A program made the translations under genes and the position numbers. Below the pieces are notes generated by a model. That model did not search any database, was not told the origin of the DNA, and was given only the letters and a program-made list of their open reading frames with translations. This document shows, piece after piece, positions 3,857-61,111 of a stretch of 64,000 bases of DNA (its first letter is position 1; each line of letters begins with the position of its first letter). The stretch is from an uncultured Muribaculaceae bacterium (GTDB lineage Bacteria; Bacillota_I; Bacilli_A; RF39; UBA660), in NCBI GenBank assembly GCA_964416365.1, contig CAYQDO010000001.1, positions 4,050 through 68,049 of the forward strand. Direction: 5' to 3'.

Positions 3857-4738
3857 ATGATAAAGTTCTTAAAAAATGTGTCAATAATTTTACTTATAAT
3901 TTTAACTATCATAAAAAGACCAACAATAACTACCGCAATTATCGAAGCAATTAATATATGGATTACTAATATATTTCCATCTTTATTTCCAATTCTAATA
4001 ATAAGTGATCTAATTATCAGCACTGATCTAATTAATATTATTACTAATATTATCGGACCTTTTTTTTCTAAATTATTTAAAGTTAGTAAATATAGCTCCT
4101 ATGTATTTATAATGAGTCTGTTAAGCGGTTGCCCTAGCAATGCTAAATATACTAAGGATTTATTAGATTATAATTTAATTAGTAAAGAAGAAGCTATTAA
4201 AGTATTATCTATGTCTCTTTTATACAATCCAATATTAATTTTAACTATTACCAGTTATTTAAATAAAGAAGACTCTTGCTTTATCATTATAGCCAATATA
4301 ATAATAAACATAATTATTGGGATTATAAATCGCAAGTTTTATTGTCAAGTTAAACACAATGAAAAAATGTTAAACCGAAATTTTAATCTAATTTCTTCTA
4401 TATCTAAATCTATAGATACATTAATGTTAGTATTAGGCTCTTTAGCATTATTTATTGCTCTATCATCTATTATTCCTTATAGTCATCCTTTGCTAGATGG
4501 AATATTTGAAATAACCAATGGCATTAAAGAAATAGTCTTTATTGAAAACTATAACTATCAACTATTATTTACCGGCATCCTTATGTCTTTTGGGGGCTTC
4601 AGTATTCAAACCCAAATAAAAAGTATTCTAAAAGATTATAACTTAGAATACAGTTTATTTTATAAATCAAGAATTATTCATCTAGCTTTATTTATATTAA
4701 CTTTGTACCTGAAAGTGATATTTAGTATCATTAGTTAA
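3857..4738 (+). CDS. polytopic membrane protein, YlbJ-like (nucleoside-recognition/Gate-domain type)
   Basis: 293 aa and highly hydrophobic. Its position next to the ylbL-like gene mirrors the Bacillus ylbJ-ylbL arrangement. Confidence 0.45.
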   Translation: MIKFLKNVSIILLIILTIIKRPTITTAIIEAINIWITNIFPSLFPILIISDLIISTDLINIITNIIGPFFSKLFKVSKYSSYVFIMSLLSGCPSNAKYTKDLLDYNLISKEEAIKVLSMSLLYNPILILTITSYLNKEDSCFIIIANIIINIIIGIINRKFYCQVKHNEKMLNRNFNLISSISKSIDTLMLVLGSLALFIALSSIIPYSHPLLDGIFEITNGIKEIVFIENYNYQLLFTGILMSFGGFSIQTQIKSILKDYNLEYSLFYKSRIIHLALFILTLYLKVIFSIIS

Positions 4739-5344
4739 ATTCGTAATCTGAAAGTTAATATTTTTCTTATAAACATAGCTTAAATGAATACCAAAATCTT
4801 CGCCATCTTCATTTAAAACCGGTAAATCAATTCTTAAAGAACAATGATCAGTACCACAATTTTGTTTATAGGTTCCATAACCTTCATATAAAAATGGTGT
4901 CTCTCTTAAATATCTCTTACTACCCCTACGATAACCAACAATATTGACTTGTTCAGTATCAGAGTATCCATAAGAATAATATAGTAAATAGCCAATATTT
5001 TCGCTAGTATTTAAAGAATCGTATATCAGCTTTAAGCAATGCCCTTCTCCATTTCGCAGTGAAGAAGATGCAGGTATAACCGATAAAACCGTATCTTTAC
5101 GATCTGGCATCGTCGCGCCATCATTACATGAAGCTATTCCTACTAAACCTAAATCAATAAAATCATTTTCAATTTCTTTAATTATATTAGCTTGATTCAT
5201 AAGTAATGTCGAAGTAATTCTACTTCTTTCATCTTCATTACGGACCGTAATTAAAACCGATATTAAAAATATTAAAATGATTGAAATTAAAGTAACTCCG
5301 ACAATAATTTCCACTAAAGTCATTCCCTTATTATTCTTTATCAT
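4697..5344 (-). CDS. type IV pilin-like minor pilin (pseudopilin) with a prepilin leader
   Basis: N-terminus MIKNNKG|MTLVEIIVGVTLISIIL: Gly at -1, Glu at +5, then a hydrophobic helix, which is the class III signal. Its start ATGA overlaps the ftsW stop. Confidence 0.7.
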   Translation of the reverse strand: MIKNNKGMTLVEIIVGVTLISIILIFLISVLITVRNEDERSRITSTLLMNQANIIKEIENDFIDLGLVGIASCNDGATMPDRKDTVLSVIPASSSLRNGEGHCLKLIYDSLNTSENIGYLLYYSYGYSDTEQVNIVGYRRGSKRYLRETPFLYEGYGTYKQNCGTDHCSLRIDLPVLNEDGEDFGIHLSYVYKKNINFQITNLTNDTKYHFQVQS

Positions 5345-6557: not shown

Positions 6558-6687
6558 CTTTGGTAAATTGCGCTATTCTTTTTTCTAATTTATTACTTCT
6601 TCTAAATTTTAATAAATAATAAGTAGTAAAGACTAATATGAGTACTACAACTAATACTATAATTACAATTATTAGTTTTTCTTTCAT
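6558..6687 (-). CDS. small membrane peptide (~43 aa) translationally coupled to the upstream ParA-like gene
   Basis: The ATG at 6687 overlaps the TAA stop of the 6687..7421 ORF (TAATG), and its RBS AGGAGGAG lies inside the upstream gene's last codons. Translation: MKEKLIIVIIVLVVVLILVFTTYYLLKFRRSNKLEKRIAQFTKD. Confidence 0.4.
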
Positions 6688-7421
6688 TACTCCTCCTTAT
6701 TAATTAAAGACTTCGCAATTAAATTAAATATTTTATAATCAGGCCATTTTTGATTGTTGATAGTTAAAACTTCTCCCTTAAAAGTGGTATTATCGATATC
6801 ATTATAATTAAAACGATTACTAATCGTATAATCAATATTATTTTGTAAAATATTTTTAATATCATATAAAAAATAATATTCTCTATTAAAATGGATACTA
6901 TAATTTAATATAACATTTATATCTTTACAAAACTTCTTTAAATACTCTAAATTAATACGAGAATTTTTTAAATCCAAGGCATCATTAGTAATAATATAAA
7001 ATACTGTATTCATTTTTTTTAGTAAAGATTCATTAAAACTATTTAAGACATGATTAGTATCAAAAAGAATCACATCATAAAGTAAATAAGCTTCTGATAT
7101 AAGTCCATCTATACAAGAAAAAGTTATTTCTTTAGCTTCCTCAATACTATCTGGAGCAGAAAGAAAATCAATGTAATTGTTATATTTAACTATATAATCC
7201 TTTATATCTGGAAACTTTTCTTTACTAAATTCTTTATAATAATCATAAATTGTTTTTCGAGACTTTTTATTTAAAGCTACGGCTATTCCACCATTAAATA
7301 AATCAGTATCTACAATTAAAACCTTTTTCTTTTGATTAGAAATTGTTCCTGCTAAATTTAATATAAAAGTAGTTTTACCAACGCCACCTTTACCTGAAAA
7401 TACACTTGCTACTTTACTCAT
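6687..7421 (-). CDS. ParA/MinD-family P-loop ATPase (CpaE/TadZ-like or MinD-like)
   Basis: Deviant Walker A SGKGGVGKTT near the N-terminus, 244 aa. Confidence 0.65.
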   Translation of the reverse strand: MSKVASVFSGKGGVGKTTFILNLAGTISNQKKKVLIVDTDLFNGGIAVALNKKSRKTIYDYYKEFSKEKFPDIKDYIVKYNNYIDFLSAPDSIEEAKEITFSCIDGLISEAYLLYDVILFDTNHVLNSFNESLLKKMNTVFYIITNDALDLKNSRINLEYLKKFCKDINVILNYSIHFNREYYFLYDIKNILQNNIDYTISNRFNYNDIDNTTFKGEVLTINNQKWPDYKIFNLIAKSLINKEE

Positions 7422-7806
7422 CTTGTACCTCTTTTATTATTATATTTTCACCATCTTTGTGGCCAATAAAATTAACATCACATCGATAATAATTTACTCC
7501 AATTAATTTTCCAAAAAAACTGGTATAAGGATGGCTATTAGAAATTGTTAAATCTCCATCCTCTTCATTATATTGTACGGTTAGTACGTCTGTTGATATT
7601 TTATTTTTTTCAAAAAATTCTTTAATATCCTCATAATAATCATCTTTAGAATATGTTAAAGTATCTTTGATAATTTTCTTAGTAGTTAATTCTACTCTAG
7701 TATTTTGAATAAACATTAGGGCAAAATCAAAGATAAATGCTATAATCAGCATAAAAATTGGAATCAATATAACAAAAATCCATTGATTAACCTTATACTT
7801 ATGCAT
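7414..7806 (-). CDS. small membrane-anchored protein with TadE-like topology
   Basis: 130 aa with an N-terminal hydrophobic helix followed by a soluble domain. A candidate extended -10 (TGATATAAT) and the RBS GGTAGGAAG lie upstream at about 7807-7870. Confidence 0.3.
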   Translation of the reverse strand: MHKYKVNQWIFVILIPIFMLIIAFIFDFALMFIQNTRVELTTKKIIKDTLTYSKDDYYEDIKEFFEKNKISTDVLTVQYNEEDGDLTISNSHPYTSFFGKLIGVNYYRCDVNFIGHKDGENIIIKEVQDE

Positions 7807-7872: not shown

Positions 7873-9519
7873 TTAACTAACCCTAAAAGGATTAGTTAAT
7901 GAACCTTCTCCGGTAACGATAGTCGATGATGAAATATTAATTACTGGTCTTAAATATGTTAATCGATCTATTCGATTACTATATAGTTTTCCACTGTCTC
8001 CTACATAAAAAATATTTGGTAAAAAATCATCATCATACATGACGTAAGATGTCATAGTCCAATTGTATCTATTAATATATAAATAATTATATGAATTATC
8101 TATATCATAAACTAATCCTGCCATCAATGCTTCATCTGCCGTTAATAATCCTACTGGATATATTAATGCGCCATTACCTTTACTCTCATCATTTACCGTA
8201 AAACGATCATTTTTGAAACCACAATGTAGAGTAGGTTTTACAGTATAAAACGATAGTCTAAAATGAGCAGCATATCTAGTATCAATTTCTGCACCATACC
8301 CAGGACCAGTTGCTTCTCCTCCTATTTCACTTTGTAGTTGGCGATCATTACAAAACAAAGTATCAACTATTTCATTTTCAAAAGATTGATTTAATATATT
8401 TGTCTCATACCATGTATCTAATTGTATTTTAGTATTACTTGAAGTTTCATTTCTTACTGCTTCTTCTCTTGACGTTGATGCACTTCCGTTCTCTCCACCA
8501 TACATATAGCCCAAATATTTAACATCATCATTATAATCACTCCAAGAAAATTTATCATAAAGCTTAGGATTTGTTCCAACATCATTCATAGTTTCATATT
8601 GATTGAATTCTTCTTCTGTACCATTATATATTAATCTAATAGAGCCATCACCATTAATACGAATGATTTTCCATTGAAAGCCACCAAATAAAAGATTGTT
8701 ATTTAAATATTCTTTATCTCCACGATAATAATAACTTACTCCATAGTCGTCAACTGTTGCATATAGACCATTTTCTACAGTAGCTACCGATTTTATAAGA
8801 CTTCCTTCTTCACCAGTTTCCGGCAATAAAACATATGTGCTTTGAGAAACAGCTACCTTTGAAAAATCAGGATTACCTTTTGCTCTGATGGTTATTTCTC
8901 CACCATCTTGAGATAATATTTTGTTTTTTAAACAGTTTTCTTCTTTGCATGGATCGACATATGTTTCAACTGTAATATAAGCATTGATTTCTTTTTCTTT
9001 ATCATCATCTTGAATATATGGGGCATTTAAAAAATAAATCTCTAAGGTATAAGTATGAATTTTACTTCCACCCGTTGGTGAAGTAAATATACCATGACCT
9101 AGACTTATTATTTTAGCTCCAGTTCCGATATTATTTAAATTATCGGTATCGGGAATTACAGCTCCATTATTACTAGTGTTCTCACTTATTAATTTATATT
9201 TTATAGCTGATTCACTGAAAGTATTAGATTCTACTACTAGATTAACTTGATAATTCATATCAAAAGGTGTTGTATTATCTCCGGTTATAGTAAATATTTT
9301 AATGCTTACTGGATCATTAGTAGGAATTATGTTATTTACTTTGATATTTGCCCCACCATTATAAGCAATTTTCATTTTACCGCCAGAAATAGTAATCGTA
9401 TCTATTGTTTCAGCATCTTCAAAATTAGCTGTAAAATAAGCATAAGAAATCCCAATTGACACTAATAAAACAATAAAAATTCCTAATAAAATTATAACTG
9501 TTTTTTTAATCATATACAT
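7873..9519 (-). CDS. large secreted protein, paralog A, with a SipW-cognate-type signal and TasA/camelysin-like N-terminal domain, a divergent C-terminal half and a conserved C-terminal tail
   Basis: Signal peptide ...LLVSIGISYA|YFTANFED resembles the TasA GTWA|AFND class. Residues up to about 315 are near-identical to paralog B. The C-terminal tail is LRPVINISSSTIVTGEGSLTNPFRVS. Confidence 0.6.
   Translation of the reverse strand: MYMIKKTVIILLGIFIVLLVSIGISYAYFTANFEDAETIDTITISGGKMKIAYNGGANIKVNNIIPTNDPVSIKIFTITGDNTTPFDMNYQVNLVVESNTFSESAIKYKLISENTSNNGAVIPDTDNLNNIGTGAKIISLGHGIFTSPTGGSKIHTYTLEIYFLNAPYIQDDDKEKEINAYITVETYVDPCKEENCLKNKILSQDGGEITIRAKGNPDFSKVAVSQSTYVLLPETGEEGSLIKSVATVENGLYATVDDYGVSYYYRGDKEYLNNNLLFGGFQWKIIRINGDGSIRLIYNGTEEEFNQYETMNDVGTNPKLYDKFSWSDYNDDVKYLGYMYGGENGSASTSREEAVRNETSSNTKIQLDTWYETNILNQSFENEIVDTLFCNDRQLQSEIGGEATGPGYGAEIDTRYAAHFRLSFYTVKPTLHCGFKNDRFTVNDESKGNGALIYPVGLLTADEALMAGLVYDIDNSYNYLYINRYNWTMTSYVMYDDDFLPNIFYVGDSGKLYSNRIDRLTYLRPVINISSSTIVTGEGSLTNPFRVS
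8649..9449. repeat. copy 1 of an ~800-bp near-identical direct repeat (the 5' coding halves of the two paralogs)
   Basis: Sequence from about 8649 to 9449 recurs almost base-for-base at about 10371 to 11172, an offset of about 1722 bp. Confidence 0.8.
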
Positions 9520-9586: not shown

Positions 9587-11236
9587 TTAAATTACTCGAA
9601 ATGGATCAGTCGTTGTCCCTGTTCCTGATACTATAGTATCAGAGGTTAGTGAAATACTGGCGCGAACTCCGTTGGAGTAATTCACGGCGTTATTGCCTAA
9701 ATATCCAGGCAAGTAAACAAAGAAAACGTATGCATTGCCACCTGAACTGCCCGGTGATAAAAGCCACCAGTTTTTGCTTGTATATAAATAATTTGTTGTA
9801 TTAGTTTTACCATTCACTAATCCCGCCAAGGCGGCTTCATCAGCAGTTATTAATCCGATTGGATAGGTTAATGCTCCATTTCCTATTGTTGTATCTGCTG
9901 AGGTTGTAAATCGATCATTTTTTAAGCCACATTTTAAAGTTGGAGTTTTATAATCAATTAAACGATAATACGCCGCATAATTTATATATACTCCTGTATT
10001 ACCATGTCCTGGGCCAGTTGCTACGCCTCCTACTTCACTTTCAAGTTGACGATCGTTACAAAATAAGTTATTTACCACTTGTGATTCAAATGATTTATCA
10101 GATATATTTGTTTGATACCAGTTGTCTAAGACAGTTTTGACATTTGTTGATGTTTCATTATATGTTGCAACTACTGAGGTTGTACCATTTCTTACTGTTG
10201 ATGCTACGCCATTTGCTCCGCCATACATATATCCCACATATTTAGCATCATTATTATAAGTAACATTCCAAGCTGATAAATCTATTTGAGTATTTTCACC
10301 AACATCATTCATTGTTTCATTTTGATTAAATTCCTCTTCTGTGCCATTATAAATAAGTCTGATTGAACTATCACCATTAATACGAATGATTTTCCATTGA
10401 AAGCCACCAAATAAAAGATTGTTATTTAAATATTCTTTATCTCCACGATAATAATAACTTACTCCATAGTCGTCAACTGTTGCATATAGACCATTTTCTA
10501 CAGTAGCTACCGATTTTATAAGACTTCCTTCTTCACCAGTTTCCGGCAATAAAACATATGTGCTTTGAGAAACAGCTACCTTTGAAAAATCAGGATTACC
10601 TTTTGCTCTGATGGTTATTTCTCCACCATCTTGAGATAATATTTTGTTTTTTAAACAGTTTTCTTCTTTGCATGGATCGACATATGTTTCAACTGTAATA
10701 TAAGCATTGATTTCTTTTTCTTTATCATCATCTTGAATATATGGGGCATTTAAAAAATAAATCTCTAAGGTATAAGTATGAATTTTACTTCCACCCGTTG
10801 GTGAAGTAAATATACCATGACCTAGACTTATTATTTTAGCTCCAGTTCCGATATTATTTAAATTATCGGTATCGGGAATTACAGCTCCATTATTACTAGT
10901 GTTCTCACTTATTAATTTATATTTTATAGCTGATTCACTGAAAGTATTAGATTCTACTACTAGATTAACTTGATAATTCATATCAAAAGGTGTTGTATTA
11001 TCTCCGGTTATAGTAAATATTTTAATGCTTACTGGATCATTAGTAGGAATTATGTTATTTACTTTGATATTTGCCCCACCATTATAAGCAATTTTCATTT
11101 TACCGCCAGAAATAGTAATCGTATCTATTGTTTCAGCATCTTCAAAATTAGCTGTAAAATAAGCATAAGAAATTGAGATAGATACTATCAGTATTAAAAT
11201 CAAACCTAACAAATATAAAATAATTTTATTTTTCAT
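9587..11236 (-). CDS. large secreted protein, paralog B, with the same N-terminal TasA-like domain, a different C-terminal half and a conserved C-terminal tail
   Basis: The track ORF starts at a TTG at 11281. The likely start is the ATG at 11236 (MKNKIILYLLG...ISYAYFTANFED). The C-terminal tail is GVRASISLTSDTIVSGTGTTTDPFRVI. Confidence 0.6.
   Translation of the reverse strand: MKNKIILYLLGLILILIVSISISYAYFTANFEDAETIDTITISGGKMKIAYNGGANIKVNNIIPTNDPVSIKIFTITGDNTTPFDMNYQVNLVVESNTFSESAIKYKLISENTSNNGAVIPDTDNLNNIGTGAKIISLGHGIFTSPTGGSKIHTYTLEIYFLNAPYIQDDDKEKEINAYITVETYVDPCKEENCLKNKILSQDGGEITIRAKGNPDFSKVAVSQSTYVLLPETGEEGSLIKSVATVENGLYATVDDYGVSYYYRGDKEYLNNNLLFGGFQWKIIRINGDSSIRLIYNGTEEEFNQNETMNDVGENTQIDLSAWNVTYNNDAKYVGYMYGGANGVASTVRNGTTSVVATYNETSTNVKTVLDNWYQTNISDKSFESQVVNNLFCNDRQLESEVGGVATGPGHGNTGVYINYAAYYRLIDYKTPTLKCGLKNDRFTTSADTTIGNGALTYPIGLITADEAALAGLVNGKTNTTNYLYTSKNWWLLSPGSSGGNAYVFFVYLPGYLGNNAVNYSNGVRASISLTSDTIVSGTGTTTDPFRVI
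10371..11172. repeat. copy 2 of the ~800-bp direct repeat
   Basis: Same as above. Identity breaks immediately 5' of ...gcataagaaat and 3' near ...tcaccattaatacg. Confidence 0.8.
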
Positions 11237-11284
11237 ATTTACCACTAGTATAATCATATCATTTTTCAAACTCAAAAACAATAA

Positions 11285-11305
11285 AAAAAGAGCTTACGCT
11301 CTACT
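11285..11305 (-). terminator. rho-independent terminator after efp
   Basis: On the minus strand, GAGCGTAAGCTC forms the hairpin followed by TTTTTTTAT. It overlaps the efp stop codon. Confidence 0.5.
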
Positions 11306-11854
11306 ATAATATTTACCATCTCTAGTAGTTACAATTATCTTTTCACCATTATTTATAAATAGTGGAACTTTAACTACTAATCCTGTTTCAATGGTAGCAT
11401 CTTTCATGGCATTACTTGTCGTATTACCTTTTACAGCATCAGATGTTTCTATTATTTCGTATTCGATTTTTTCTGGTAGATTTATGCCAATTATTGCATT
11501 ATTATACATTTGAATTTCAAGTTCTAAACTTTCTTTTAAATAAGAAATTTGATCTTCTAAAGTTTCTTTAGGTATTTCTAATTGCGAATAATCTTCAGTA
11601 TTCATAAATACATACATATTTCCTTGATTATATAAATATTGCATATTTAATTTATCAACATGAGCCTTTTCTAATTTAATATTAGTATTAAAAGTATCCT
11701 CAACTATTGATCCTGTTCTTAAATTTTTATACTTCATACGAACAAAAGCTGGTCCTTTACCTGGTTTAACATGTTGAAATTCAAGGATTAAACATAAATT
11801 ACCTTCGATAATAACAGTCATGCCATTTTTTACATCATTAATATTTATATTCAT
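11294..11854 (-). CDS. efp: elongation factor P
   Basis: MNININDVKNGMTVIIEGNLCLILEFQHVKPGKGPAFVRMKYKNLRTG is the EF-P signature, including the KPGKG loop. Confidence 0.9.
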   Translation of the reverse strand: MNININDVKNGMTVIIEGNLCLILEFQHVKPGKGPAFVRMKYKNLRTGSIVEDTFNTNIKLEKAHVDKLNMQYLYNQGNMYVFMNTEDYSQLEIPKETLEDQISYLKESLELEIQMYNNAIIGINLPEKIEYEIIETSDAVKGNTTSNAMKDATIETGLVVKVPLFINNGEKIIVTTRDGKYYSRA

Positions 11855-11864
11855 AAGTTATCAC

Positions 11865-12035
11865 CTATTTCTTTTCAATAAAAGTTTGTGTTTTATTACA
11901 ATTTTTACAGAATTTTTTTATTTCCAAACGATCTGGAGTTTTAGATTTGTTCTTTTCAGTTGGTCTGATAAAAAAACCACATACTGAACATTTTAATTCT
12001 AAATCATTTCTATTTTCAGTTTTTTTCTTACCCAT
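11865..12035 (-). CDS. rpmG: 50S ribosomal protein L33
   Basis: MGKKKTENRNDLELKCSVCGFFIRPTEKNKSKTPDRLEIKKFCKNCNKTQTFIEKK shows the Cys4 zinc ribbon and the PDRLE motif. AGGAGGAAG RBS precedes the internal ATG. Confidence 0.8.
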   Translation of the reverse strand: MGKKKTENRNDLELKCSVCGFFIRPTEKNKSKTPDRLEIKKFCKNCNKTQTFIEKK

Positions 12036-12092
12036 TTCAGTTCTTCCTCCTTCTTTTGACCTTAGTATTATAGCACAGTAAACCACCTAATA

Positions 12093-12290
12093 TCAAGAAT
12101 ATTTCCAGACATAAACGATTTTCTCTAGTAAATTATAATCATTACATTTTAGGCAAATTGTACTACCTGGATTCTTAATATCTTTGCAACAATTATCGTT
12201 ATAAGGAAAATCTTTCATTTTATAGTATGTAATCATACTAAATACTAGAAATATCATAATTAGAATGCTTAAAAAAGTTTTGCTATTCAT
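12093..12290 (-). CDS. small Cys-rich secreted hypothetical protein
   Basis: 65 aa with a signal-like N-terminus and 6 Cys. Confidence 0.3.
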   Translation of the reverse strand: MNSKTFLSILIMIFLVFSMITYYKMKDFPYNDNCCKDIKNPGSTICLKCNDYNLLEKIVYVWKYS

Positions 12291-12330
12291 TTTATCACCA
12301 CCCTAACTATACTAAAATTTTGAGTATTTT

Positions 12331-14316
12331 TCAATCAAAATAGTCTACAAACAAATTAGTAATTTCTTTTGATACTCTTGAATTTATGGGGTATCTATAA
12401 TTATTATTATTGTCATTTTTATAACTTATATTGGGACTTACTATCGCTATTGATATTTGGGGATTTTCAAAAGGAGCATACATAACATAAGAAGTTGTGA
12501 AAGTTTCTGTATCGACATTACCATCTAAATCAGTATCTAAATAAGAATCAGCAGTACCAGTCTTACCAGCTGATGTAAATTTATGATTGGTATAACTATA
12601 AGCAGTCCCAGTAGCATTAACAACTCTAAAACCTTCTCTTATGCGGTTTAAATATTTTAAATCTATTGGGGCCTTATTTAATACTTTACTTTGTTTTTCA
12701 TAATAGATACTGCCATCTTCATTTAATACATATTTTAATAAGGATGTTTCTTTTCTTTTACCAGTAGCGATGGTATTAATATATTGAATTAATGATATTG
12801 GTGTATAAGTGTCAAAATGTCCGACCGAGATATTTAATAGTTGATCTGGCGTATATTCAGTACCTTTTTGACCGGATATTTCTTTAGATAAATCAATACC
12901 AGTTAAAACTCCTAAGCCATAGGCTGCTAATACTTTGCGATATTCTTCAAAATAATCCTTTGTTACGTTAAGTTTAATACCTGGTTTATATTTTTCACCG
13001 GTTAAACCAATAGCAATTAAATATTGAAAGGTATTACTAGACATTTTCAAAGCATTAATATCATTGATAACTCCTATTTTAGTCCAAGAACATTTATCTT
13101 TTCCCCCGTATAATCTAATACAACGATCTTGGATTTTAGTATTTTCATTAATAAGGTTATTTTTATATCCAACACTAATGGTTGCTCCTTTAACAACACT
13201 ACCTAAATTATAGGAATTTAAAACATTATAATAAGAATAATCCAAAAATGTTTCATTTTCTTTGATTTTTTTGCCTATCAAAGACAGAATAGATCCATCC
13301 TGAGGATTACTGACCATAATATAACTTTCACCATAATATTTTGAGTTTAAAGCTTTTTTGGCATTAATCATTTCTTTTTTTAATATTTCTTCAATAGCAA
13401 TTTGCAAATTAATGTCGATTGATAAAACTAAATCTTTACCTCTTTTATAATTACTAATTAAAGTTAATCTATTATTTTTAACTTGATATTTAGCCTTTTC
13501 TCCTCTTAAGATTTCATCATATATATATTCTAGGTTGTTTATACCAACCCGGTCATTTAATTTATAATTTTTGTTTAAATATTCTTTTTTTAGTTCTTCA
13601 GGAATTCCTTGTTTATATGTTGATACAGTCCCAAAAACATCTCTCAAGATATCTTTATAGGGATAAACTCTTTCCCACGTAATATCAGTTCTAATTCCCT
13701 CTAAACTCAGTTCATTAATTAAAACATATTCTTCATTAGTAATGTTAGTTTTAATTATTTTATCTTCATAAGAATAACCATTATTCATTAAATAATAAAA
13801 ACTAGCTGCTTTATGATTAACTGTTTTTAACATCTCATCAGTAATTAGTTCTAGTTTTTTAGCAAATAATTCGTCACTGGTCATTTTTCTTTCTTCATAA
13901 TCTTTTAAAATACTTTGATTTAGTAAATTATCTACGCTTTCTTGATTTGTTAAATAAAAATATTTTTTAAAATAATAATCACTTATATTTTCGTTAATAT
14001 CAATATTATTTGCTAATATAGCGGCAATCTCCAATTCTTTCTTTGTACTTATATTTAATTTATTATATATGATGGATTTTACACCAATATTATCAACCAG
14101 AATATTACCGTTAATATCTAGAATTCTCCCACGAGGAGCAGTCATTCCTTCTAAATAAGCATGACTATTTTTATATATAATATTTGCATAAAAAGCTTTT
14201 TTATAAATACATAAATATGATAGTCTACCAATAATTATCATATTTATGACAATTAGACATCTTATTAAATTCTTTTTCATATTTTTAGTATAAGTAATTT
14301 TTATATACTTAAACAT
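12331..14316 (-). CDS. penicillin-binding protein 2 (class B transpeptidase)
   Basis: 661 aa, N-terminal TM, dimerisation domain, and a transpeptidase with the SVVK (SxxK) motif. Confidence 0.8.
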   Translation of the reverse strand: MFKYIKITYTKNMKKNLIRCLIVINMIIIGRLSYLCIYKKAFYANIIYKNSHAYLEGMTAPRGRILDINGNILVDNIGVKSIIYNKLNISTKKELEIAAILANNIDINENISDYYFKKYFYLTNQESVDNLLNQSILKDYEERKMTSDELFAKKLELITDEMLKTVNHKAASFYYLMNNGYSYEDKIIKTNITNEEYVLINELSLEGIRTDITWERVYPYKDILRDVFGTVSTYKQGIPEELKKEYLNKNYKLNDRVGINNLEYIYDEILRGEKAKYQVKNNRLTLISNYKRGKDLVLSIDINLQIAIEEILKKEMINAKKALNSKYYGESYIMVSNPQDGSILSLIGKKIKENETFLDYSYYNVLNSYNLGSVVKGATISVGYKNNLINENTKIQDRCIRLYGGKDKCSWTKIGVINDINALKMSSNTFQYLIAIGLTGEKYKPGIKLNVTKDYFEEYRKVLAAYGLGVLTGIDLSKEISGQKGTEYTPDQLLNISVGHFDTYTPISLIQYINTIATGKRKETSLLKYVLNEDGSIYYEKQSKVLNKAPIDLKYLNRIREGFRVVNATGTAYSYTNHKFTSAGKTGTADSYLDTDLDGNVDTETFTTSYVMYAPFENPQISIAIVSPNISYKNDNNNNYRYPINSRVSKEITNLFVDYFD

Positions 14317-16742: not shown

Positions 16743-17207
16743 TTATGGCGTTGGCGTTGTAAATGATGTTGGGCAAGTATCGTTAATAGTCGTACTTGCT
16801 CCGGAAAAATTCGCTGGAGTTGATAATTTAGCATAAGTATAATCTTTAACACTAAAATATGTATCAGTTAAAGAAACATAAAATGTTGGTTTAAGTTTTG
16901 CATCTATAGTTACGATAACATAACCATGATATTGTGATGATTCACCCATCTCTAAATCGCTTCTTAAACTGTAACAGTATCCGTAAGTTTTTGAACGCTC
17001 ACTAGTTGTACCTAATAATATATCAGCTTGGTATGATTCTTGAGCTTTATTTAGTACTTTTTCGGCATAGATTTTAAATGTGCCTCTTTGAGCATCGCTC
17101 ATAGTGCTCATGACAGAAGGAATGGCAATAATCATAATTATTGCTAGAACAACCATAACTGCTAATAATTCTACGAGGGTAAAACCTTTATTATTTAACC
17201 TTACCAT
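16743..17207 (-). CDS. type IV pilin (ComGC/PilA-like major pilin)
   Basis: From the internal ATG at 17207: MVRLNNKG|FTLVELLAVMVVLAIIMIIAIP, a canonical prepilin leader with Glu at +5, preceded by an AGGAG RBS. Mature protein is about 147 aa. Confidence 0.8.
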   Translation of the reverse strand: MVRLNNKGFTLVELLAVMVVLAIIMIIAIPSVMSTMSDAQRGTFKIYAEKVLNKAQESYQADILLGTTSERSKTYGYCYSLRSDLEMGESSQYHGYVIVTIDAKLKPTFYVSLTDTYFSVKDYTYAKLSTPANFSGASTTINDTCPTSFTTPTP

Positions 17208-17229
17208 ATATACTCCTATCTTCTGCTTT

Positions 17230-17259
17230 ATTATAATTGAATTGACAATTCTTGTCAAT
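17230..17259 (-). promoter_or_regulatory. consensus sigma-A promoter with an overlapping perfect palindrome upstream of the pilin gene
   Basis: On the minus strand: TTGACA, 17 nt, TATAAT. The inverted repeat ATTGACAAgaaTTGTCAAT spans the -35 box and the spacer. Confidence 0.6.
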
Positions 17260-25081: not shown

Positions 25082-26932
25082 TTAGTTATTTATATAATAT
25101 CCTGTATTATATAAATTGCCCTCCCACTCAATTAGAATTAAATTTTTTCCAGTACCTTTCTTTAAATTAACAGAACAATCATTTACTTCGTAAACATAAC
25201 CTTTACCATATTCATCAAGTAAGACAACATTATAATCTTCTTCATAGAACATGATTTTTAATTTATTACCGGATAATTCAAACGGAATTGAGTATAAAAT
25301 AGCCTTTTCAAATTTAGCGGCATAATCTGTTTCTGTATAAGAATCACTTAATTGCTCTGCTGAGAAGCTATTCGGCATTACTTTTTCAAAAGTGTAATCT
25401 TCATCAAATATTGGCATTTTACTTACATAGTTGTAAGTATTAGAAACAGTCATTTTAAATATTTCTTCATCACCTTTTAAAGTAATGATTGTTGAATAGA
25501 AGTCACCTTCATCACTTAAAATGCATTCACTCATATCTGTATGGAATCCTCTGAAATCACGACCAAACATAATAGTTTTTTCATTTTCTTTAGTATAATA
25601 ATCACCAAAAGTGAAACTAAAGAAATTATCTCCATAACGCCAATCTTCAATAATAGTTTTTTTACTAGAATCTATTGTATAATCATTAGCAGTAGATTTT
25701 AAATCAGCTGCTTTAGCGCAAGACCAAGTATTTGTTAAATCCCAACCATTATTCATTAAAGTTAATTTATTATTATTTAATTTAGCATTGAAATTTCCTT
25801 TTGGATAAACAAAATTAGCATCAGTTGATTTTAATAAATATTTATTAAATTTTGCTGAATAGTAATCTGGATTAGCTAAAATCCAATTAATTTTACCATT
25901 CAAATCCATATTAATTAAAGTACTGGAATAATAAATTCCTACTAAAACACTCTCACTTGATTCATCGTAATATAAAGCATTAATATATCCAAAATTATCT
26001 TTTACACTATTCATATGAGCAGAATCTATTTCTGATAACATCGCAAATATATCATATGTCTTTTCTACTTCACCAGTTTTTAGATTGAACTGTATAACCT
26101 TTTCATCTGCTGTAGAATATAAAATTTTATTATTTGGAATTTCTGTATAATTATGAAAATATGGATTTGCTAGTTCATATGAGTTATACACTTTTCCTAA
26201 TAAATCAATTTCCAATAAACCTAAAGCTTTATCTTCCAATGCTTCTGGACTAGCAAGTAATAAATGACCATTTTCTAATCTAGTTAATTGTTTATACACT
26301 TGATTAGTTAATAACCATCTTATTTCACCTTTTTGATCAAAAGCAGCAGCAGTGTGCCCAACTGGTGTTGAAAGGAAGTAAAAATCATTGTCGTTTGCAT
26401 CTAATTTACTAGTAATAATTTCAATATCCGGAAAATAAATTGAATTATATAAACTTGGACTTTCTATCGGAATACTAATCGTGTTATTAGTTCCATCATT
26501 TAATTCTAATATAATTTGATTATTATAGTCCATATATAAACCATAAATAGGAATGTAATGAACAGTTTGTTCTTTAGTATAATAAATCAAATCTTTTCCT
26601 TCGTCTTTACCTTTAACAGTTATTTTAACATTTGTTTTAGTAGACGTTTTAAATCCTACTAACGCAGTAAGCGGAGATATCTCATAAGGATTAACAACAA
26701 TAAGTGGATTAGATATTGTATAATCGCCATTTTCTATTTTAGTTAGAAATTCTGTATCCATATCATCTTGATTAGAAACTAGATTAATATTATTTTTTAA
26801 TAAGTTGTATTCATCAAAGGAATATAGTTTTTCTTTTTGTGAAATTACCTTGTCTTTGAAAATAAAAGCTAAAATGACAGTTATTAAAATAAGAACAACG
26901 GTAACTAGTATCACTAAATTCTTTCTCTTCAT
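25082..26932 (-). CDS. membrane-anchored beta-propeller-like protein, possibly arylsulfotransferase (ASST) family
   Basis: 616 aa, N-terminal signal anchor, repeated beta-rich units and an AHMNSV motif reminiscent of the ASST active-site His. Family assignment is tentative. Confidence 0.35.
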   Translation of the reverse strand: MKRKNLVILVTVVLILITVILAFIFKDKVISQKEKLYSFDEYNLLKNNINLVSNQDDMDTEFLTKIENGDYTISNPLIVVNPYEISPLTALVGFKTSTKTNVKITVKGKDEGKDLIYYTKEQTVHYIPIYGLYMDYNNQIILELNDGTNNTISIPIESPSLYNSIYFPDIEIITSKLDANDNDFYFLSTPVGHTAAAFDQKGEIRWLLTNQVYKQLTRLENGHLLLASPEALEDKALGLLEIDLLGKVYNSYELANPYFHNYTEIPNNKILYSTADEKVIQFNLKTGEVEKTYDIFAMLSEIDSAHMNSVKDNFGYINALYYDESSESVLVGIYYSSTLINMDLNGKINWILANPDYYSAKFNKYLLKSTDANFVYPKGNFNAKLNNNKLTLMNNGWDLTNTWSCAKAADLKSTANDYTIDSSKKTIIEDWRYGDNFFSFTFGDYYTKENEKTIMFGRDFRGFHTDMSECILSDEGDFYSTIITLKGDEEIFKMTVSNTYNYVSKMPIFDEDYTFEKVMPNSFSAEQLSDSYTETDYAAKFEKAILYSIPFELSGNKLKIMFYEEDYNVVLLDEYGKGYVYEVNDCSVNLKKGTGKNLILIEWEGNLYNTGYYINN

Positions 26933-26943
26933 TTTTTCACCCC

Positions 26944-28659
26944 TTATCCTACTCTAAATGGATCAGATGTTGTACCTGTTCCGCCAGTAATTTTCGTGTT
27001 AGAATTTAAAACTATTACCGGTCTAACTCCTGTCTTTTGACCACTATTATCAACTTTAGTAACTCCTCCTGTAGTATACAAGCTATATGCTCCTATAGCT
27101 TCTGCAACATTACCGTTACCGTCAACATATAAAGTAGTATTATAGTGTGGGTATGCCCTTCTGTTAAAACTGCTACTACCTGCTACACTGACACTGCTTG
27201 TAGATAATACTTTTTTACGATAATATGTCCCTAAGCCCCAAGTTGCACCAAAATTTAGATAATTGGAATTACAAGAAAATGTAGAACAATTAGCTATTTT
27301 ACTATAATCAGCATATGACAATAAACCAATTCTACTAGTCATAGTATCGTTTACTGAACTACCATATCCTTTAAGATCATAAGTTGCATTTTTAAGATAA
27401 GTACTATAATTAGCTAGGGTTGTTAAATAAGTATTTAAAAAAGTTAATAAACCATTAGGATTTTGGGTTAACAAATAATATGTATTTTCACTACTCAATC
27501 CATAACCTGAATTACAACAAGATGATGGACTACAATACCATCTTTCAGTATGATTTGAAAATGCATAATTGCCAATAGAAGTATTTAAAATTAAACCAAT
27601 ACTGTTATCTGGATATAGCTTAAATATACGCCAAGTTTTATTGGAATACGAAACATAATTACCTGTTTGCGGTCCTATATAATAACAAGAATTATCAGAT
27701 TGATCAGTACAATTATTATCATCACTAATTACTTGAGCGACATTGTCCATAACTTGATAACTAAATGTAGTTGTTGGAACTGAACCATCACTATTTTGTC
27801 TAGTATAAGTAACTGTTCTTGTAAAAGTACTAGCTGTATTTGTCGCAACACTATCAATTGAATAATCTGCAGTAGATAAATTAGTCGTTTGACCATATCT
27901 GTTTATTCCTTGTACAGTAACAGTTATTGGACTATTAATAACTACTTTAGTAGGAGATACTGTAGCTGTTATTGTAACAATATCGTTCATTGAGGGTGAA
28001 ACTATTAATGATCTATTAAGCTCTTTATTAATAGAACTTTCTGGCAACTTATAAGTATAGGTTATTGTATAAGTTCCTGGTCTTGTAATATCAACATTAC
28101 ATGTCGCACTAAGGATAACTTCATTAATACTTACACTTGTATTTACTGTACCATCAGTATTTACTAATCTTAATGCTGGTGTCCCCCAATCAGATGCATA
28201 ACTAGATATCTGATCACATGCAAAACTTTGATTATAATCAATAATCTTATTTTGAGTTTCCAAATATGACTCAGTTACAGTTTCAGCTGGATAATCAAAT
28301 CTAACTATACCACTTGCATCTAAAGTGGCTTTGACAAAGTCTTCTTCACTAGTTGCTCCAATTTTTTCTCCAGTTTGAGGATTTACTAAATTTTCATCTA
28401 ATAGTCCCTCTTCAATTAAATCGGCAACTTTAATAACCAAATATCCTCGATCAGTTTGTAATTGATTTAAAAGTGTGGTATTACCTGATAAATAAGCATC
28501 AGCCGAACTGACAATTTTATTTATTAAAGTGTCATAGTCTTCATTTTTGTTTTTATCAAAAACCTTATTAAGACCAACACCCACTACTAAACCAATGGCA
28601 ACTAGTATTACTAAGGAAATTACTACTTCAATTAAAGTAAAGCCATTTTTCTTCATCAT
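26944..28659 (-). CDS. giant modular type IV pilin (prepilin leader plus a ~540-aa C-terminal module ending in the conserved tail)
   Basis: Start ATGATGAAG at 28659 follows the RBS AGGAAGGTGAAG. MMKKNG|FTLIEVVISLVILVAIGLVV is a canonical class III signal. The C-terminal tail is GVRPVIVLNSNTKITGGTGTTSDPFRVG. The track ORF extends spuriously to 28800. Confidence 0.75.
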   Translation of the reverse strand: MMKKNGFTLIEVVISLVILVAIGLVVGVGLNKVFDKNKNEDYDTLINKIVSSADAYLSGNTTLLNQLQTDRGYLVIKVADLIEEGLLDENLVNPQTGEKIGATSEEDFVKATLDASGIVRFDYPAETVTESYLETQNKIIDYNQSFACDQISSYASDWGTPALRLVNTDGTVNTSVSINEVILSATCNVDITRPGTYTITYTYKLPESSINKELNRSLIVSPSMNDIVTITATVSPTKVVINSPITVTVQGINRYGQTTNLSTADYSIDSVATNTASTFTRTVTYTRQNSDGSVPTTTFSYQVMDNVAQVISDDNNCTDQSDNSCYYIGPQTGNYVSYSNKTWRIFKLYPDNSIGLILNTSIGNYAFSNHTERWYCSPSSCCNSGYGLSSENTYYLLTQNPNGLLTFLNTYLTTLANYSTYLKNATYDLKGYGSSVNDTMTSRIGLLSYADYSKIANCSTFSCNSNYLNFGATWGLGTYYRKKVLSTSSVSVAGSSSFNRRAYPHYNTTLYVDGNGNVAEAIGAYSLYTTGGVTKVDNSGQKTGVRPVIVLNSNTKITGGTGTTSDPFRVG

Positions 28660-34503: not shown

Positions 34504-35850
34504 ATGGTTCAAGATTTTTCGAATGAAGAAGTCATTTTCGATGCTGAACAACTAACTAACACAACAAATTCAAACTTAGTTAGTTTCAACTATGAAGAAA
34601 CCCCTATTACTGAAATCGTTAATATGATTATTTTGGATGCTATTAAGAATAATGCATCTGATATTCATTTTGATCCCACCGGGAATGAACTACGAATTAG
34701 AATTAGAATAGATGGAACACTTTATGACTACAGTTATGTTCCATTATATGTTCAAAAAAATATGATTACCAGAATCAAAATTATAGCTGGTATGAATATT
34801 ACTGAATCAAGAACTCCTCAAGATGGTGCTATTAAAAATAATCTTGAAAATACCAATGTCGATCTTCGTGTTTCGAGTTTACCAACGAACCTTGGAGAAA
34901 AAATCGTTATTCGTATTTTAGACTATTCCATGAGTTCAGCGGGAATTGAACAACTTGATTTCAACAAAGCTAACCTTGATAAAGTGTATAAAATGATTGC
35001 TGAACCAAATGGTATTATTTTAGTTACTGGTGCTACAGGTACTGGTAAATCTACTACAGTATATGCAATATTACAAAGACTGAATACGGAAGATCGTAAT
35101 ATTATTACCGTTGAAGATCCAATTGAAATGAATATTGGGGGAATCAATCAAGTTCAAGTTATTTCTGATATTGGTTTAACTTTTGCCAATGTTTTAAGAA
35201 GTATGTTAAGACAAGACCCCGATATTATCATGATTGGTGAGGTTCGAGATGATGAAACTGCTAGAATCGCCGTTCGTGCTTCAATAACCGGACACTTGGT
35301 ACTATCAACTATTCATACCAATAATTCATTAAATACCATAGAAAGATTATTAGATATGGAAGTTGAACGTTATCTGTTAGGATCTGCTTTAACTGGTATT
35401 ATTTCTCAAAAACTAGCTAGAAGACTTTGTAAGAAATGTCGTGGTTCCAGACTTACCAATGAATATGAAAAAAATGTTTTTAAAAAAGCATTAAATATTG
35501 ATGTAGATAAAATTTACGTGCCGGTTGGATGTCCGGAATGTCATAATGGCTATAAAGGAAGATTAGCTATTCATGAAGTCTTAAGAATTAATCAAGAAAT
35601 TCAGGATGCCATTACTAGAGATACAGACAAAACAACTTTAAGAAAACTGGTTTACTCTTCCGGAACAATTACGATGCTTCAAGATGGTTTAGCCAAAGTT
35701 ATTGAAGGTGAAACCACTTTTGAAGAAATAATAAAATTAATTGATTTAGAAGATGATTTAGGTACTGATACTAATTTAGGATTAGAAGAAACAATTGAAG
35801 ATAGTATAATCAATAATGAAAATAGAGATTACGATTTCTTAGAAATGTAA
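34504..35850 (+). CDS. type IV pilus / type II secretion family ATPase (PilB/GspE/ComGA-like), lacking the N1 domain
   Basis: Walker A GATGTGKST, Asp box, Walker B DPDIIMIGEVRD, His box GHLVLSTIHTN, and a tetra-Cys zinc motif CKKCRG...CPECHNGYKGR. 448 aa. RBS AGGAGG. Confidence 0.85.
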   Translation: MVQDFSNEEVIFDAEQLTNTTNSNLVSFNYEETPITEIVNMIILDAIKNNASDIHFDPTGNELRIRIRIDGTLYDYSYVPLYVQKNMITRIKIIAGMNITESRTPQDGAIKNNLENTNVDLRVSSLPTNLGEKIVIRILDYSMSSAGIEQLDFNKANLDKVYKMIAEPNGIILVTGATGTGKSTTVYAILQRLNTEDRNIITVEDPIEMNIGGINQVQVISDIGLTFANVLRSMLRQDPDIIMIGEVRDDETARIAVRASITGHLVLSTIHTNNSLNTIERLLDMEVERYLLGSALTGIISQKLARRLCKKCRGSRLTNEYEKNVFKKALNIDVDKIYVPVGCPECHNGYKGRLAIHEVLRINQEIQDAITRDTDKTTLRKLVYSSGTITMLQDGLAKVIEGETTFEEIIKLIDLEDDLGTDTNLGLEETIEDSIINNENRDYDFLEM

Positions 35851-44434: not shown

Positions 44435-46252
44435 TTATCTTCCTCCCATTCTCGTTTGTGATTCCTTAGAATAATTAGGAGTATTTATCATTTGTTCTTT
44501 ATTATTAGGATTTAAGCCTTGATCTAATAACATTCTTTGAACTCTTAATACACTATTATCAATATCATCAGTTATAATATTGTCCACTTCATTATTAGCA
44601 ACCATTTCTTGATCTTCTTCGGCTATTACTTGATCTGAAATATCGCCTTCATTCATAACTTCATTTCTATCCTCTGGCGATAATGCCGGATCATTAGCTT
44701 TTTCTTTTACTTTTCTATTAAATACTCTAAATACATTTTTTAATGTATTTTGAGCTCGATTACCCATACGCTGTAAAATGGTAGGTTCATTTAAATTTCG
44801 TTTGACATTAGCATATTTAGTATATTCTAGATAAATATATGAAGCAGCTTGATATAGTCCAAGCGGCAATCCAATTCCAGGGATAGCTATTACTTGGGAT
44901 ATAACTGCTATAGTACCAACAGTTCTAAATAATATTCCTAGTTTATCCATATGTAAATTAGCTGGTTTTTGATCTTTGACATATTTACCACGTTTTGTTG
45001 CTGGTTTAATATCATTTTGTTGTTGATCAACTATATTATCTTGAGGTAATGTCTGTTCTGACACAGTAGTAGTTACTGAGTCTTCACTCATTTCTTTATT
45101 TTCTTCTTTTTTGGCTTCTTGATTTTGGTTTAAATCTACCTTTTTAGCATCAAATAATGATGCTTCATATAGATTATCACCCATATTGTTCAATTTATAA
45201 TAAGTTATGCCATCCTTAATTACAACATCAGCAATTTTATATTCTTTATCAAATTCTAAATCTCCTCTAGTGATGTTAGAATTTCTATCTACTCCAGGAC
45301 CACCATTATAAACAACAACATCATCGTATTTTCTAATATCTTCTGGTATTTGTATTGGTTTTGGTAGAGGAGGAATATCTATTTTTGAATCAAATCTTGG
45401 AACACCTTCATTTATTTTAGGAGTAGTCTCTGGTTTAATGTCTTTCTTTACTGAAATATCTATATTATCTTTACGTCTTAGCCCCAATGCCTCTAAAGCA
45501 TTGTTATAATTTTTAGTATTAGATAAAAATTTATTATGATTAGCTTTAAACTCATTACGAGTCTTTAATATATTGTTAAATTCATCTATTAAAGTTTTCT
45601 TGGTTTCAGATGTTAAATCAGACATCATTAAATAATCATAGACACCTTTAAAATCTTGGCCAAGTTTATCTATAAAGTTGGCATCAAAATTTTGATTAAA
45701 TCTATTCTCTTGAGTAGCCGCAACTTTTTTAGCATTTCTGATTGCTTCTACATTAGGACCGTTATATTTTTTTAATAAATCTATTGCTTTTTCCATTTTT
45801 TGTTCAGGAGTTAATGTAGTATTATCATCTAAGGCATCTATAGCCGCTTTTGTCTCAGCTCTAAATGCTTCAGCTTCTGCTACACGATCGACAGCTTGTA
45901 ATATACCTAATTTTCCTTTAATATCATTTAACATTGTTTTGAAACGGGTATCATTTAAATTAAAATGAGAATCTCTAGAAACAATATTAGTTATTTTATC
46001 TAAAAAAACGCGTACGTCCATTCTAAGCTTGATTGTTAGTTCTTCCATATTGCCTAATTTTGCTTCTAAAACTCTTAAATTTTCATACACCTTGATTGGT
46101 TCTAGACTGCCGCGAGCAATCTTTTCAGTTTGTTCTCTAAGAATCTTAAAATTAGTAACAATATAGCCATCTTTTTCAATCGTATTGATAAATTTCAGTA
46201 TTTGATCCATACCTGGATTTTCATTTGATTTATTAATTTCTTCTGTGGTCAT
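44435..46252 (-). CDS. large hypothetical protein with a C-terminal transmembrane hairpin
   Basis: 605 aa, mostly hydrophilic and coiled-coil-like, with one hydrophobic hairpin (LGILFRTVGTIAVISQVIAIPGIGLPLGLY) about 130 aa from the C-terminus. Confidence 0.4.
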   Translation of the reverse strand: MTTEEINKSNENPGMDQILKFINTIEKDGYIVTNFKILREQTEKIARGSLEPIKVYENLRVLEAKLGNMEELTIKLRMDVRVFLDKITNIVSRDSHFNLNDTRFKTMLNDIKGKLGILQAVDRVAEAEAFRAETKAAIDALDDNTTLTPEQKMEKAIDLLKKYNGPNVEAIRNAKKVAATQENRFNQNFDANFIDKLGQDFKGVYDYLMMSDLTSETKKTLIDEFNNILKTRNEFKANHNKFLSNTKNYNNALEALGLRRKDNIDISVKKDIKPETTPKINEGVPRFDSKIDIPPLPKPIQIPEDIRKYDDVVVYNGGPGVDRNSNITRGDLEFDKEYKIADVVIKDGITYYKLNNMGDNLYEASLFDAKKVDLNQNQEAKKEENKEMSEDSVTTTVSEQTLPQDNIVDQQQNDIKPATKRGKYVKDQKPANLHMDKLGILFRTVGTIAVISQVIAIPGIGLPLGLYQAASYIYLEYTKYANVKRNLNEPTILQRMGNRAQNTLKNVFRVFNRKVKEKANDPALSPEDRNEVMNEGDISDQVIAEEDQEMVANNEVDNIITDDIDNSVLRVQRMLLDQGLNPNNKEQMINTPNYSKESQTRMGGR

Positions 46253-48565: not shown

Positions 48566-49123
48566 TTAACTTACGCCGGCTTTTCCATCTACAACTATAT
48601 TTAAATGAATTTCACTACCCAAGGTATCATTGGGTAAATTATATATATCTGGATCAGCAACCCATACTTTTAATTCAAAAGCTTTGGACTGACCAGCTGC
48701 CAAATTACCTTGAAACACTTCCCCATCCGTAATTTCACTCAAAGTTCTAGGACCCGTATTATTAAAATCCACACGAATATAGGCATGATTTAATAACGTT
48801 CTATCCGTATAATCCGGATTGTCAGCTACATAAATTGTATAGCTATAAGGAACTGTACCAGTATTTTGAATAGCAAAAGTATATTCATTATCAGTTAGCA
48901 ATTCAGCTTCTACATCACTCATCGGTTCTATATCTTCGATATTAATGCTCGATCCGCCTGTGAAAGTAATTTGTAAATCACCCACTGTTAAAACCTGAGC
49001 ATTTACGTCTGTTTCAATATCCATAAACAAAGCATAGGAAGAACCCAAGATTGTAATTACCATAACCATAACAGTTATAGCAGAAATAATAAAACGCTTT
49101 CTTAATTGATTCCTTATATACAT
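48566..49123 (-). CDS. TasA/camelysin (peptidase M73)-family secreted protein with a SipW-cognate-type signal
   Basis: ...ITILGSSYA|LFMDIETDVNAQVLTVGDLQITF...IEPMSD...FAIQNTGT aligns with TasA GTWA|AFNDIKS...GTLDL...LKPGD...FQFENNGS. Confidence 0.6.
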   Translation of the reverse strand: MYIRNQLRKRFIISAITVMVMVITILGSSYALFMDIETDVNAQVLTVGDLQITFTGGSSINIEDIEPMSDVEAELLTDNEYTFAIQNTGTVPYSYTIYVADNPDYTDRTLLNHAYIRVDFNNTGPRTLSEITDGEVFQGNLAAGQSKAFELKVWVADPDIYNLPNDTLGSEIHLNIVVDGKAGVS

Positions 49124-61060: not shown

Positions 61061-61111
61061 ATATTTCAAATTAATTATATTTATGATAAAATTATATTAG
61101 AGTAAGTGATA

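Follow-up and report, generated by a model that had tools for sequence, protein, structure and literature searches.

The stretch of DNA analyzed here (64,000 nucleotides of contig CAYQDO010000001.1, with a G+C content of 27.5%; hereafter the window) comes from an uncultured bacterium whose closest genome is the metagenome-assembled genome (MAG) "Mollicutes bacterium AS22ysBPME_135." It encodes a modular type IV prepilin (the pilin, below) and two tandem paralogs with a TasA-like N-terminal domain (paralogs 1 and 2) (Table 1). These three large proteins share the ending G[VL]R[PA]..[IL].[LI]......G.G[ST]..[DN]PFRV, which reads GVRPVIVLNSNTKITGGTGTTSDPFRVG in the pilin, YLRPVINISSSTIVTGEGSLTNPFRVS in paralog 1, and GVRASISLTSDTIVSGTGTTTDPFRVI in paralog 2, each time followed by the stop codon. 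The original prediction took this tail for a free-standing module of an undescribed family, which could act as a docking handle or donor strand. Our analysis indicates that the 25-residue tail is very probably the conserved closing hairpin of a lectin-like surface domain of 250 to 300 residues, a divergent form of the Pfam family DUF6273.

The three open reading frames (ORFs) are present as first described and their endings agree. BLASTP aligns the tail of the pilin with that of paralog 2 at 18 identities in 27 positions (E 2e-5) and with that of paralog 1 at 14 in 28 (E 1e-3); positions 26944..27024 of the window hold pilin residues 546-571 and the stop codon. Only these three proteins match a regular expression for the tail among the 208 ORFs of at least 50 amino acids in the window. 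The same expression gives 265 matches in 258 collected proteins, against a mean of 0.15 in their shuffled versions. The BLASTP and shuffling statistics, together with searches using hidden Markov models (HMMs; see below), rule out a chance similarity. The count of three occurrences needs a correction, however: three proteins do carry the tail, but they represent two independent lineages, because the tandem genes are recent paralogs (76% identity and an exact repeat of 804 bp) and count as one. The tail also recurs in homologs: it is present in about 110 of the 120 top-ranking relatives of the paralog domain and in all full-length pilin orthologs. No other stretch of the domain is as conserved: G538, G540, and P545 (paralog 2 numbering) are invariant and R525 is found in 62 of the 63 paralog-family sequences, while P547, G560, and G562 (pilin numbering) are invariant among 12 pilin-type homologs.

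Table 1. Coordinates of the pilin, the tandem paralogs, and their shared elements, as positions in the window.
Feature	Position	Strand	Description
Modular type IV prepilin, 571 aa	26944..28659	-	Leader MMKKNG/FTLIE, long alpha-1 helix, pilin head, immunoglobulin (Ig)-like domains, C-terminal lectin-like domain
Lectin-like (DUF6273-type) domain of pilin	26947..27717	-	Residues ~315-571
Tail in pilin	26944..27030	-	Residues 544-571, GVRPVIVLNSNTKITGGTGTTSDPFRVG, plus stop codon
Paralog 2, 549 aa	9587..11236	-	Hydrophobic signal/anchor ending SYA/YFTAN, probable TasA/camelysin-like jellyroll, helical linker, lectin-like domain
Lectin-like (DUF6273-type) domain of paralog 2	9590..10504	-	Residues ~245-549; tail residues 523-549 at 9590..9670
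Paralog 1, 548 aa	7873..9519	-	Same architecture as paralog 2; 76% protein identity to paralog 2
Lectin-like domain of paralog 1	~7876..8781	-	Tail at ~7876..7956
Exact direct repeat, 804 bp	8647..9450 = 10370..11173	-	Jellyroll, linker, and first lectin-domain hairpins; protein residues ~24-291 in both paralogs

The tail is not a free-standing module of about 25 residues, as homology between the pilin and the paralogs runs end to end across the globular C-terminal domain. A profile of the paralog family, made from 63 full-length homologs, aligns with the pilin at the domain start (hhalign, 92.6%; paralog 2 residues 257-297 to pilin residues 321-359), where YGVSYYYRG...FQWKIIRINGDSSIRLIYN of paralog 2 stands opposite SDNSCYYIG...KTWRIFKLYPDNSIGLILN of the pilin. 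With the domains taken alone, hhalign returns a chain of 244 columns from the domain start to the tail (94.7%, E 6e-8). A second alignment of the same comparison places IGLLSYADYSKIA opposite PVGLITADE, so that the similarity originally noted upstream of the tail, in which IGLLSYADYSKIA of the pilin pairs with PIGLITADEAALAG of the paralogs, is weak but real. When HMMs of the two families are searched reciprocally within the window, the E values are 3.7e-11 and 1.1e-8, and each search matches the domain at its start as well as at its end; paralog 1 is found with E 6e-124 by the HMM of its own family and with E 1.1e-8 by that of the pilin family. Pilin residues 300-571 yielded 116 relatives in a full HMMER scan. 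A word-indexed search with the pilin C terminus had returned no match because its word filter missed these relatives.

The family itself has been described, contrary to what had been proposed: the domain is a divergent, C-type-lectin-like DUF6273. Residues 479-531 of paralog 2 match positions 119-171 of the 172 positions of the DUF6273 profile (PF19789), i.e., the profile end only, with a score of 22.4 bits (E 1.2e-4; gathering score, 23.5). In the paralog family, 17 of 63 members match DUF6273 at E<0.01 (best E, 3.8e-7). Ten of the 116 relatives of the pilin domain were scanned, and six of them, including the prepilin P0157, pass the DUF6273 threshold with 25.4 to 35.6 bits. In these six proteins the model stops at RPxxxL, some 16 to 18 residues short of the end of the motif. 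The terminal core strand G-[VIL]-R-P-x-[ILV]-x-L is present, with profile positions 171-172 of 172 aligned in paralog 2 and in the six relatives. GVRPxxxL is always the point where the Pfam model ends, so that the tail opens, over its first 8 residues, with the last core strand of DUF6273. The model does not cover the ~18 residues that come next, and yet they are among the best conserved of the domain. Elements at both edges of the domain are left out of the Pfam model, namely, its N-terminal hairpins and, at the other end, the closing hairpin of 18 residues.

Structure predictions agree with this assignment. The AlphaFold2 model of paralog 2 has a predicted local distance difference test score (pLDDT) of 88.2, and of more than 90 throughout residues 250-549, with strands in the tail at residues 527-530, 535-537, and 546-548. 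In the pilin model (pLDDT 85.5) the tail strands are at residues 543-545, 547-551, and 568-570, and the pLDDT of the tail is 93-94 by blocks and 85 for the final residues. The predicted fold is the enlarged C-type-lectin-like fold that is known from the solved N-terminal domain of an IgA protease. In the protease, that of Thomasclavelia ramosa (PDB 9qa6), residues 31-321 are annotated as DUF6273 (PMC12402451) and make an enlarged C-type-lectin-like domain whose nearest structural neighbor is 8Q4E (PMC12237041). The protease domain and those of the window are similar in size (~290 and 255-305 residues, respectively, both enlarged), are extracellular, and come from Firmicutes-type bacteria. They have common landmarks: an initial W-x-I hairpin, G-L-[LI]-[ST]..[DE], W..SP, and the terminal GVRPxxxL, part of which falls within the Pfam profile. 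They differ in their position, as the domain follows a pilin or a jellyroll at the C terminus of the window proteins, whereas in the protease it is N-terminal and dispensable for catalysis (PMC12237041). Searches of PDB sequences with the family profile, with a DUF6273-positive relative, and with a profile of 14 sequences did not detect the relationship and gave nothing relevant. The neighbor 8Q4E is the C-terminal domain of Legionella Lcl, a DUF1566-type C-type-lectin-like domain that is half as large and trimeric on a collagen-like stalk, and in which sequence searches did not detect the closing hairpin G.GT..DP[FY].

The place of the motif within proteins is the result that best discriminates between possible roles. 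When terminal copies are defined as those within 12 residues of the C terminus, the 116 relatives of the pilin domain have 72 terminal and 70 internal copies, and 53 of these proteins have an internal one. There is one motif per copy of the domain. Hence, P0141, P0142, and P0251-P0254 have two motifs each, P0132 and P0133 have four each, and P0128 (4905 residues) has 11 tandem lectin-like domains spaced by ~277 residues, each ending in RPVIN[IL]K......G.G[ST]..NPY. Internal motifs are followed by a short linker and then by the next domain. The extreme C-terminal position seen in the window is thus incidental. Because internal motifs are about as numerous as terminal ones, with one per domain, we regard the tail as a structural element that closes the domain, and not as a sorting signal, processing site, docking handle, or donor strand.

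This distribution undermines the role first proposed for the tail, that of a C-terminal donor strand or docking handle uniting type IV pilins and TasA-like proteins in one fiber or matrix. The idea was not without merit: TasA fibers (entry 8aur) assemble by donor-strand complementation, the N-terminal domain of the paralogs is TasA-like, the tail is beta-rich in addition to being so conserved, and both types of protein are encoded in one genome. However, the donor strand of TasA is N-terminal, not C-terminal, and the low-confidence, flexible part of the paralog 2 model lies at its N-terminal residues 29-44, whereas the tails are predicted with pLDDT values of 93-98 inside their own monomeric domain. 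A motif that closes each tandem copy and is internal as often as terminal is not what one expects of a free donor strand, and the homologous genes are scattered among housekeeping genes without a conserved partner gene. Moreover, the IgA protease, a monomeric enzyme, has the related domain at its N terminus (PMC12237041, PMC12402451). We therefore find the donor-strand or docking role unsupported and very unlikely. The internal copies, which are common, are equally difficult to reconcile with a new signal for sorting, processing, or anchoring that would be recognized by an enzyme of its own, for instance a protease resembling sortase or rhombosortase. Such a signal could explain why, in about 110 of the 120 closest homologs, 2 to 7 residues separate the end of the motif from the stop codon, and the small-residue G-x-G and Pro positions of the tail, as well as a sortase-domain gene within the window, would fit with it. 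Yet the tail consists, over its first half, of a core strand that belongs to a Pfam domain, and four homologous loci have no conserved neighboring processing enzyme. The three proteins end 3 residues past the motif with neither a transmembrane helix nor a basic tail, and NCBIfam, which holds the models of known C-terminal sorting signals, gave no match at E<1. The original exclusion of LPXTG, PEP-CTERM, and GlyGly-CTERM signals was therefore right, and we hold a novel signal of this kind to be extremely unlikely.

A further alternative concerns the divergent 3' halves of the paralog genes, which would be explained if the tail region were the variable region of a diversity-generating retroelement (DGR), placed at the C-terminal end of a target with a C-type-lectin fold. 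In phages, DUF6273 domains are variable receptor-binding parts diversified by DGRs (PMC10743442), and the paralogs are identical over 804 bp before they diverge. The tail is nevertheless where the domain is best conserved rather than most variable, and the paralogs differ by insertions and deletions in addition to substitutions. Pfam scans of the window ORFs revealed no reverse transcriptase, and the window has no template-like repeat, its only long repeat being the paralog pair itself. We rejected the DGR on these last two grounds, and it is the least probable of the explanations weighed here.

How could the tail close the domain? In the mechanism that we favor, GVRPxxxL is the last core strand and the next ~18 residues, ..[IV].[TS]G.G[TS]..[DN]P[FY].[VI], would form a short hairpin and a final strand. 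The two Gly residues and the Asx-Pro pair would give tight turns, and one aromatic residue would be buried. The closing hairpin would pack back onto its own domain and bring the end of the domain beside its start, so that the tail would both complete and cap the lectin-like domain. A chain end returned near the domain start would account for the ease with which these domains are stacked in tandem. The short helical linker, the domain, and the hairpin would together make a portable head, which has become joined to different carriers in the course of evolution. The pilin would show this head on the pilus, most likely at its tip, like other modular pilins, and the TasA-like proteins, with their Sec/SipW-style N terminus, would be subunits of fibers or proteins anchored at the surface.

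Several points weigh against the reading of the tail as the closing hairpin of a DUF6273-type head. None of the three window proteins reaches the DUF6273 threshold, and the pilin and paralog 1 have no match, so that membership in the family follows from transitive homology and predicted folds. The fold match of the pilin model is not fully independent, since the alignment given to the model included domains of the paralog family. The packing of the hairpin is deduced from high pLDDT values and secondary structure only. The invariant G-x-G and Pro of the tail exceed what a cap strictly needs, and the tail may have an added interaction role. Finally, we infer both the display of family members on filaments and the function of the head, which most likely would be to bind a ligand, either a glycan or a protein.

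The pilin has the expected traits of a prepilin. Its leader, MMKKNG/FTLIEVV, has a Gly at position -1, a hydrophobic alpha-1N segment, and Glu5, and the protein scores above the cutoffs of N_methyl (PF07963; 24.4 bits versus 21.2) and TIGR02532 (19.6 versus 16.3). In the AlphaFold2 model, a helix (H9-59) is followed by the pilin head and the Ig-like domains, and these precede the lectin-like head (residues 315-571); a weak Big_3 match covers residues 166-206. Hence, non-pilin modules lie C-terminal to the pilin module. A profile search found P0237, which is identical to the pilin, and orthologs with 44 to 83% identity, whereas an exact look-up of the sequence returned no record. The arrangement resembles that of the modular pilins of Streptococcus sanguinis, PilB with a vWA module and PilC with a lectin module, whose adhesive modules are established and for which a position at the pilus tip and ligand binding are predicted (PMC8179133, PMC9934059). 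In both cases a G/FTLIE prepilin module with its alpha-1 helix is followed by a grafted C-terminal functional module. In contrast with PilB and PilC, piliation and ligand binding by the window pilin are predictions from its sequence, and no pilus machinery is adjacent to the gene apart from one gene for a T2SSE-family ATPase (34504..35850, plus strand). Two more prepilin-type proteins with N_methyl matches are encoded on the minus strand (4697..5344 and 16743..17258). These genes and that of the ATPase lie apart from one another among housekeeping genes, so that the type IV pilus genes do not make one operon but are dispersed. On the contig that encodes P0046 (L001), a second large N_methyl protein of 591 residues lies two genes away (10931..12706), which suggests that these bacteria have several modular pilins per genome.

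An arylsulfotransferase (ASST) gene whose product has an N-terminal hydrophobic segment (25082..26932, minus strand) starts 11 bp past the stop codon of the pilin gene, and the pair is kept in relatives with 51% or 83% identity in the pilin. We considered the ASST as a conserved functional partner of the pilin and set this aside: adjacency proves no functional link, because the entire proS-pilin-ASST-radC-mreC neighborhood is conserved.

The tandem paralogs have evolved differently along their length. Beyond the 804-bp repeat, their 3' halves, where most of the lectin-like head is encoded, have only 50 to 70% nucleotide identity and differ by insertions and deletions as well as by substitutions. 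This pattern suggests recent gene conversion, or variation of the head in the manner of a cassette, and the repeat itself can serve as substrate for deletions or duplications. When compared with TasA and camelysin, residues 25-190 of the paralogs probably form a jellyroll, and the hydrophobic leader ends with ..SYA/YFTAN.ED. The Peptidase_M73 HMM matches neither paralog, and only 2 of 63 homologs match it (E 0.0018). However, the N-terminal domain of the paralogs aligns (hhalign, 97%, E 1.1e-10) with a protein of the window that does match, a stand-alone camelysin/TasA-family protein of 185 residues with an ..SSYALF.. N terminus (48566..49123, minus strand; Peptidase_M73, 24.2 bits versus a cutoff of 22.5). 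The N terminus ..SYA[YL]F.. is common to this protein and the paralogs. Because of this homology to a Peptidase_M73-positive protein, the term "TasA-like" is reasonable at the level of the superfamily. The paralogs differ from TasA in that they carry a C-terminal lectin-like domain, which TasA lacks, and in that their formation of fibers is only predicted. No sipW or tapA gene was found in the window, and Pfam scans of its ORFs, a few short ones excepted, revealed no signal peptidase of the SipW type or any other. Homologs of the paralogs lie among housekeeping genes, and we found no conserved partner genes in the homologous loci.

Directly downstream of the paralogs is a gene for a small TadE-like protein (sub-threshold match; 7414..7806, minus strand), overlapped by a gene for a ParA/CpaE-like P-loop ATPase (6687..7421, minus strand). 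This hints at a Tad-type assembly context, in an arrangement that is not conserved beside the homolog P0018. The sortases said to be encoded nearby come down to the single sortase-domain ORF that we found, located ~34 kb away (61106..62755, plus strand). It encodes a protein of 549 residues in which the sortase domain spans residues 382-546 only, after an N-terminal extension of 380 residues without Pfam match.

The claim that one module is carried by two kinds of N terminus, a prepilin one and a TasA/camelysin-like one, was borne out by the N_methyl scores and the hhalign comparison given above, and the homologs extend it. Other MAGs encode domains with an identity of at least 50% to the paralog 2 domain, and these are joined either to prepilin N termini (P0015, P0035, P0046) or to N termini with the sequence MKLKEFDFKLP. 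The unit common to these fusions begins at a conserved helical linker, IL.Q.GG...I. As the same domain occurs behind different N termini, the module is portable. A large subfamily (P0025, P0028, P0034, and others) has the head behind an N terminus of the form MKLKEFDFKLP..(K/R)-rich followed by a transmembrane segment, which is a third type of carrier. Very probably, a modular pilin and TasA-like proteins share the tail through ordinary domain shuffling, and no new mechanism is implied.

A ligand-binding role of the head is plausible given the receptor-binding function of phage DUF6273 domains, the adhesive modules of pilins, and the binding of sulfated glycosaminoglycans by the Lcl domain (PMC11162425). 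One could go further and see the linker, the lectin-like domain, and the closing hairpin as an exchangeable head that a single bacterium uses on both type IV pili and TasA-like donor-strand fibers, two surface polymers that are unrelated. We offer this idea as a tentative one that is more probably wrong than right. If it were true, both polymers would target the same class of ligands, the tandem paralogs, with their 804 identical bp and divergent heads, would be a cassette system varying the specificity of binding, and the invariant G-x-G...P hairpin would be a standard joint for moving the head between carriers or for stacking it.

These results turn an apparently new signal into a known domain for which the Pfam boundaries are too short. 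The homologs come mostly from MAGs of uncultured Bacilli and Mollicutes and are almost all unannotated; in one search, almost none of 2649 matches had a Pfam tag. Thousands of proteins of these bacteria are left as "hypothetical" because the DUF6273 model omits both edge hairpins. The C-type-lectin-like head joins the list of modules found on modular type IV pilins, and we did not find the architecture of TasA-like proteins with a lectin head described in the literature that we searched. Judging from their sequences, the window proteins are candidate adhesins of poorly known Bacilli from anaerobic digesters and the gut. The window also includes an ORF of 605 residues without Pfam family (44435..46252, minus strand), whose product is charged, probably rich in coiled coils, and has a hydrophobic segment near residue 450.

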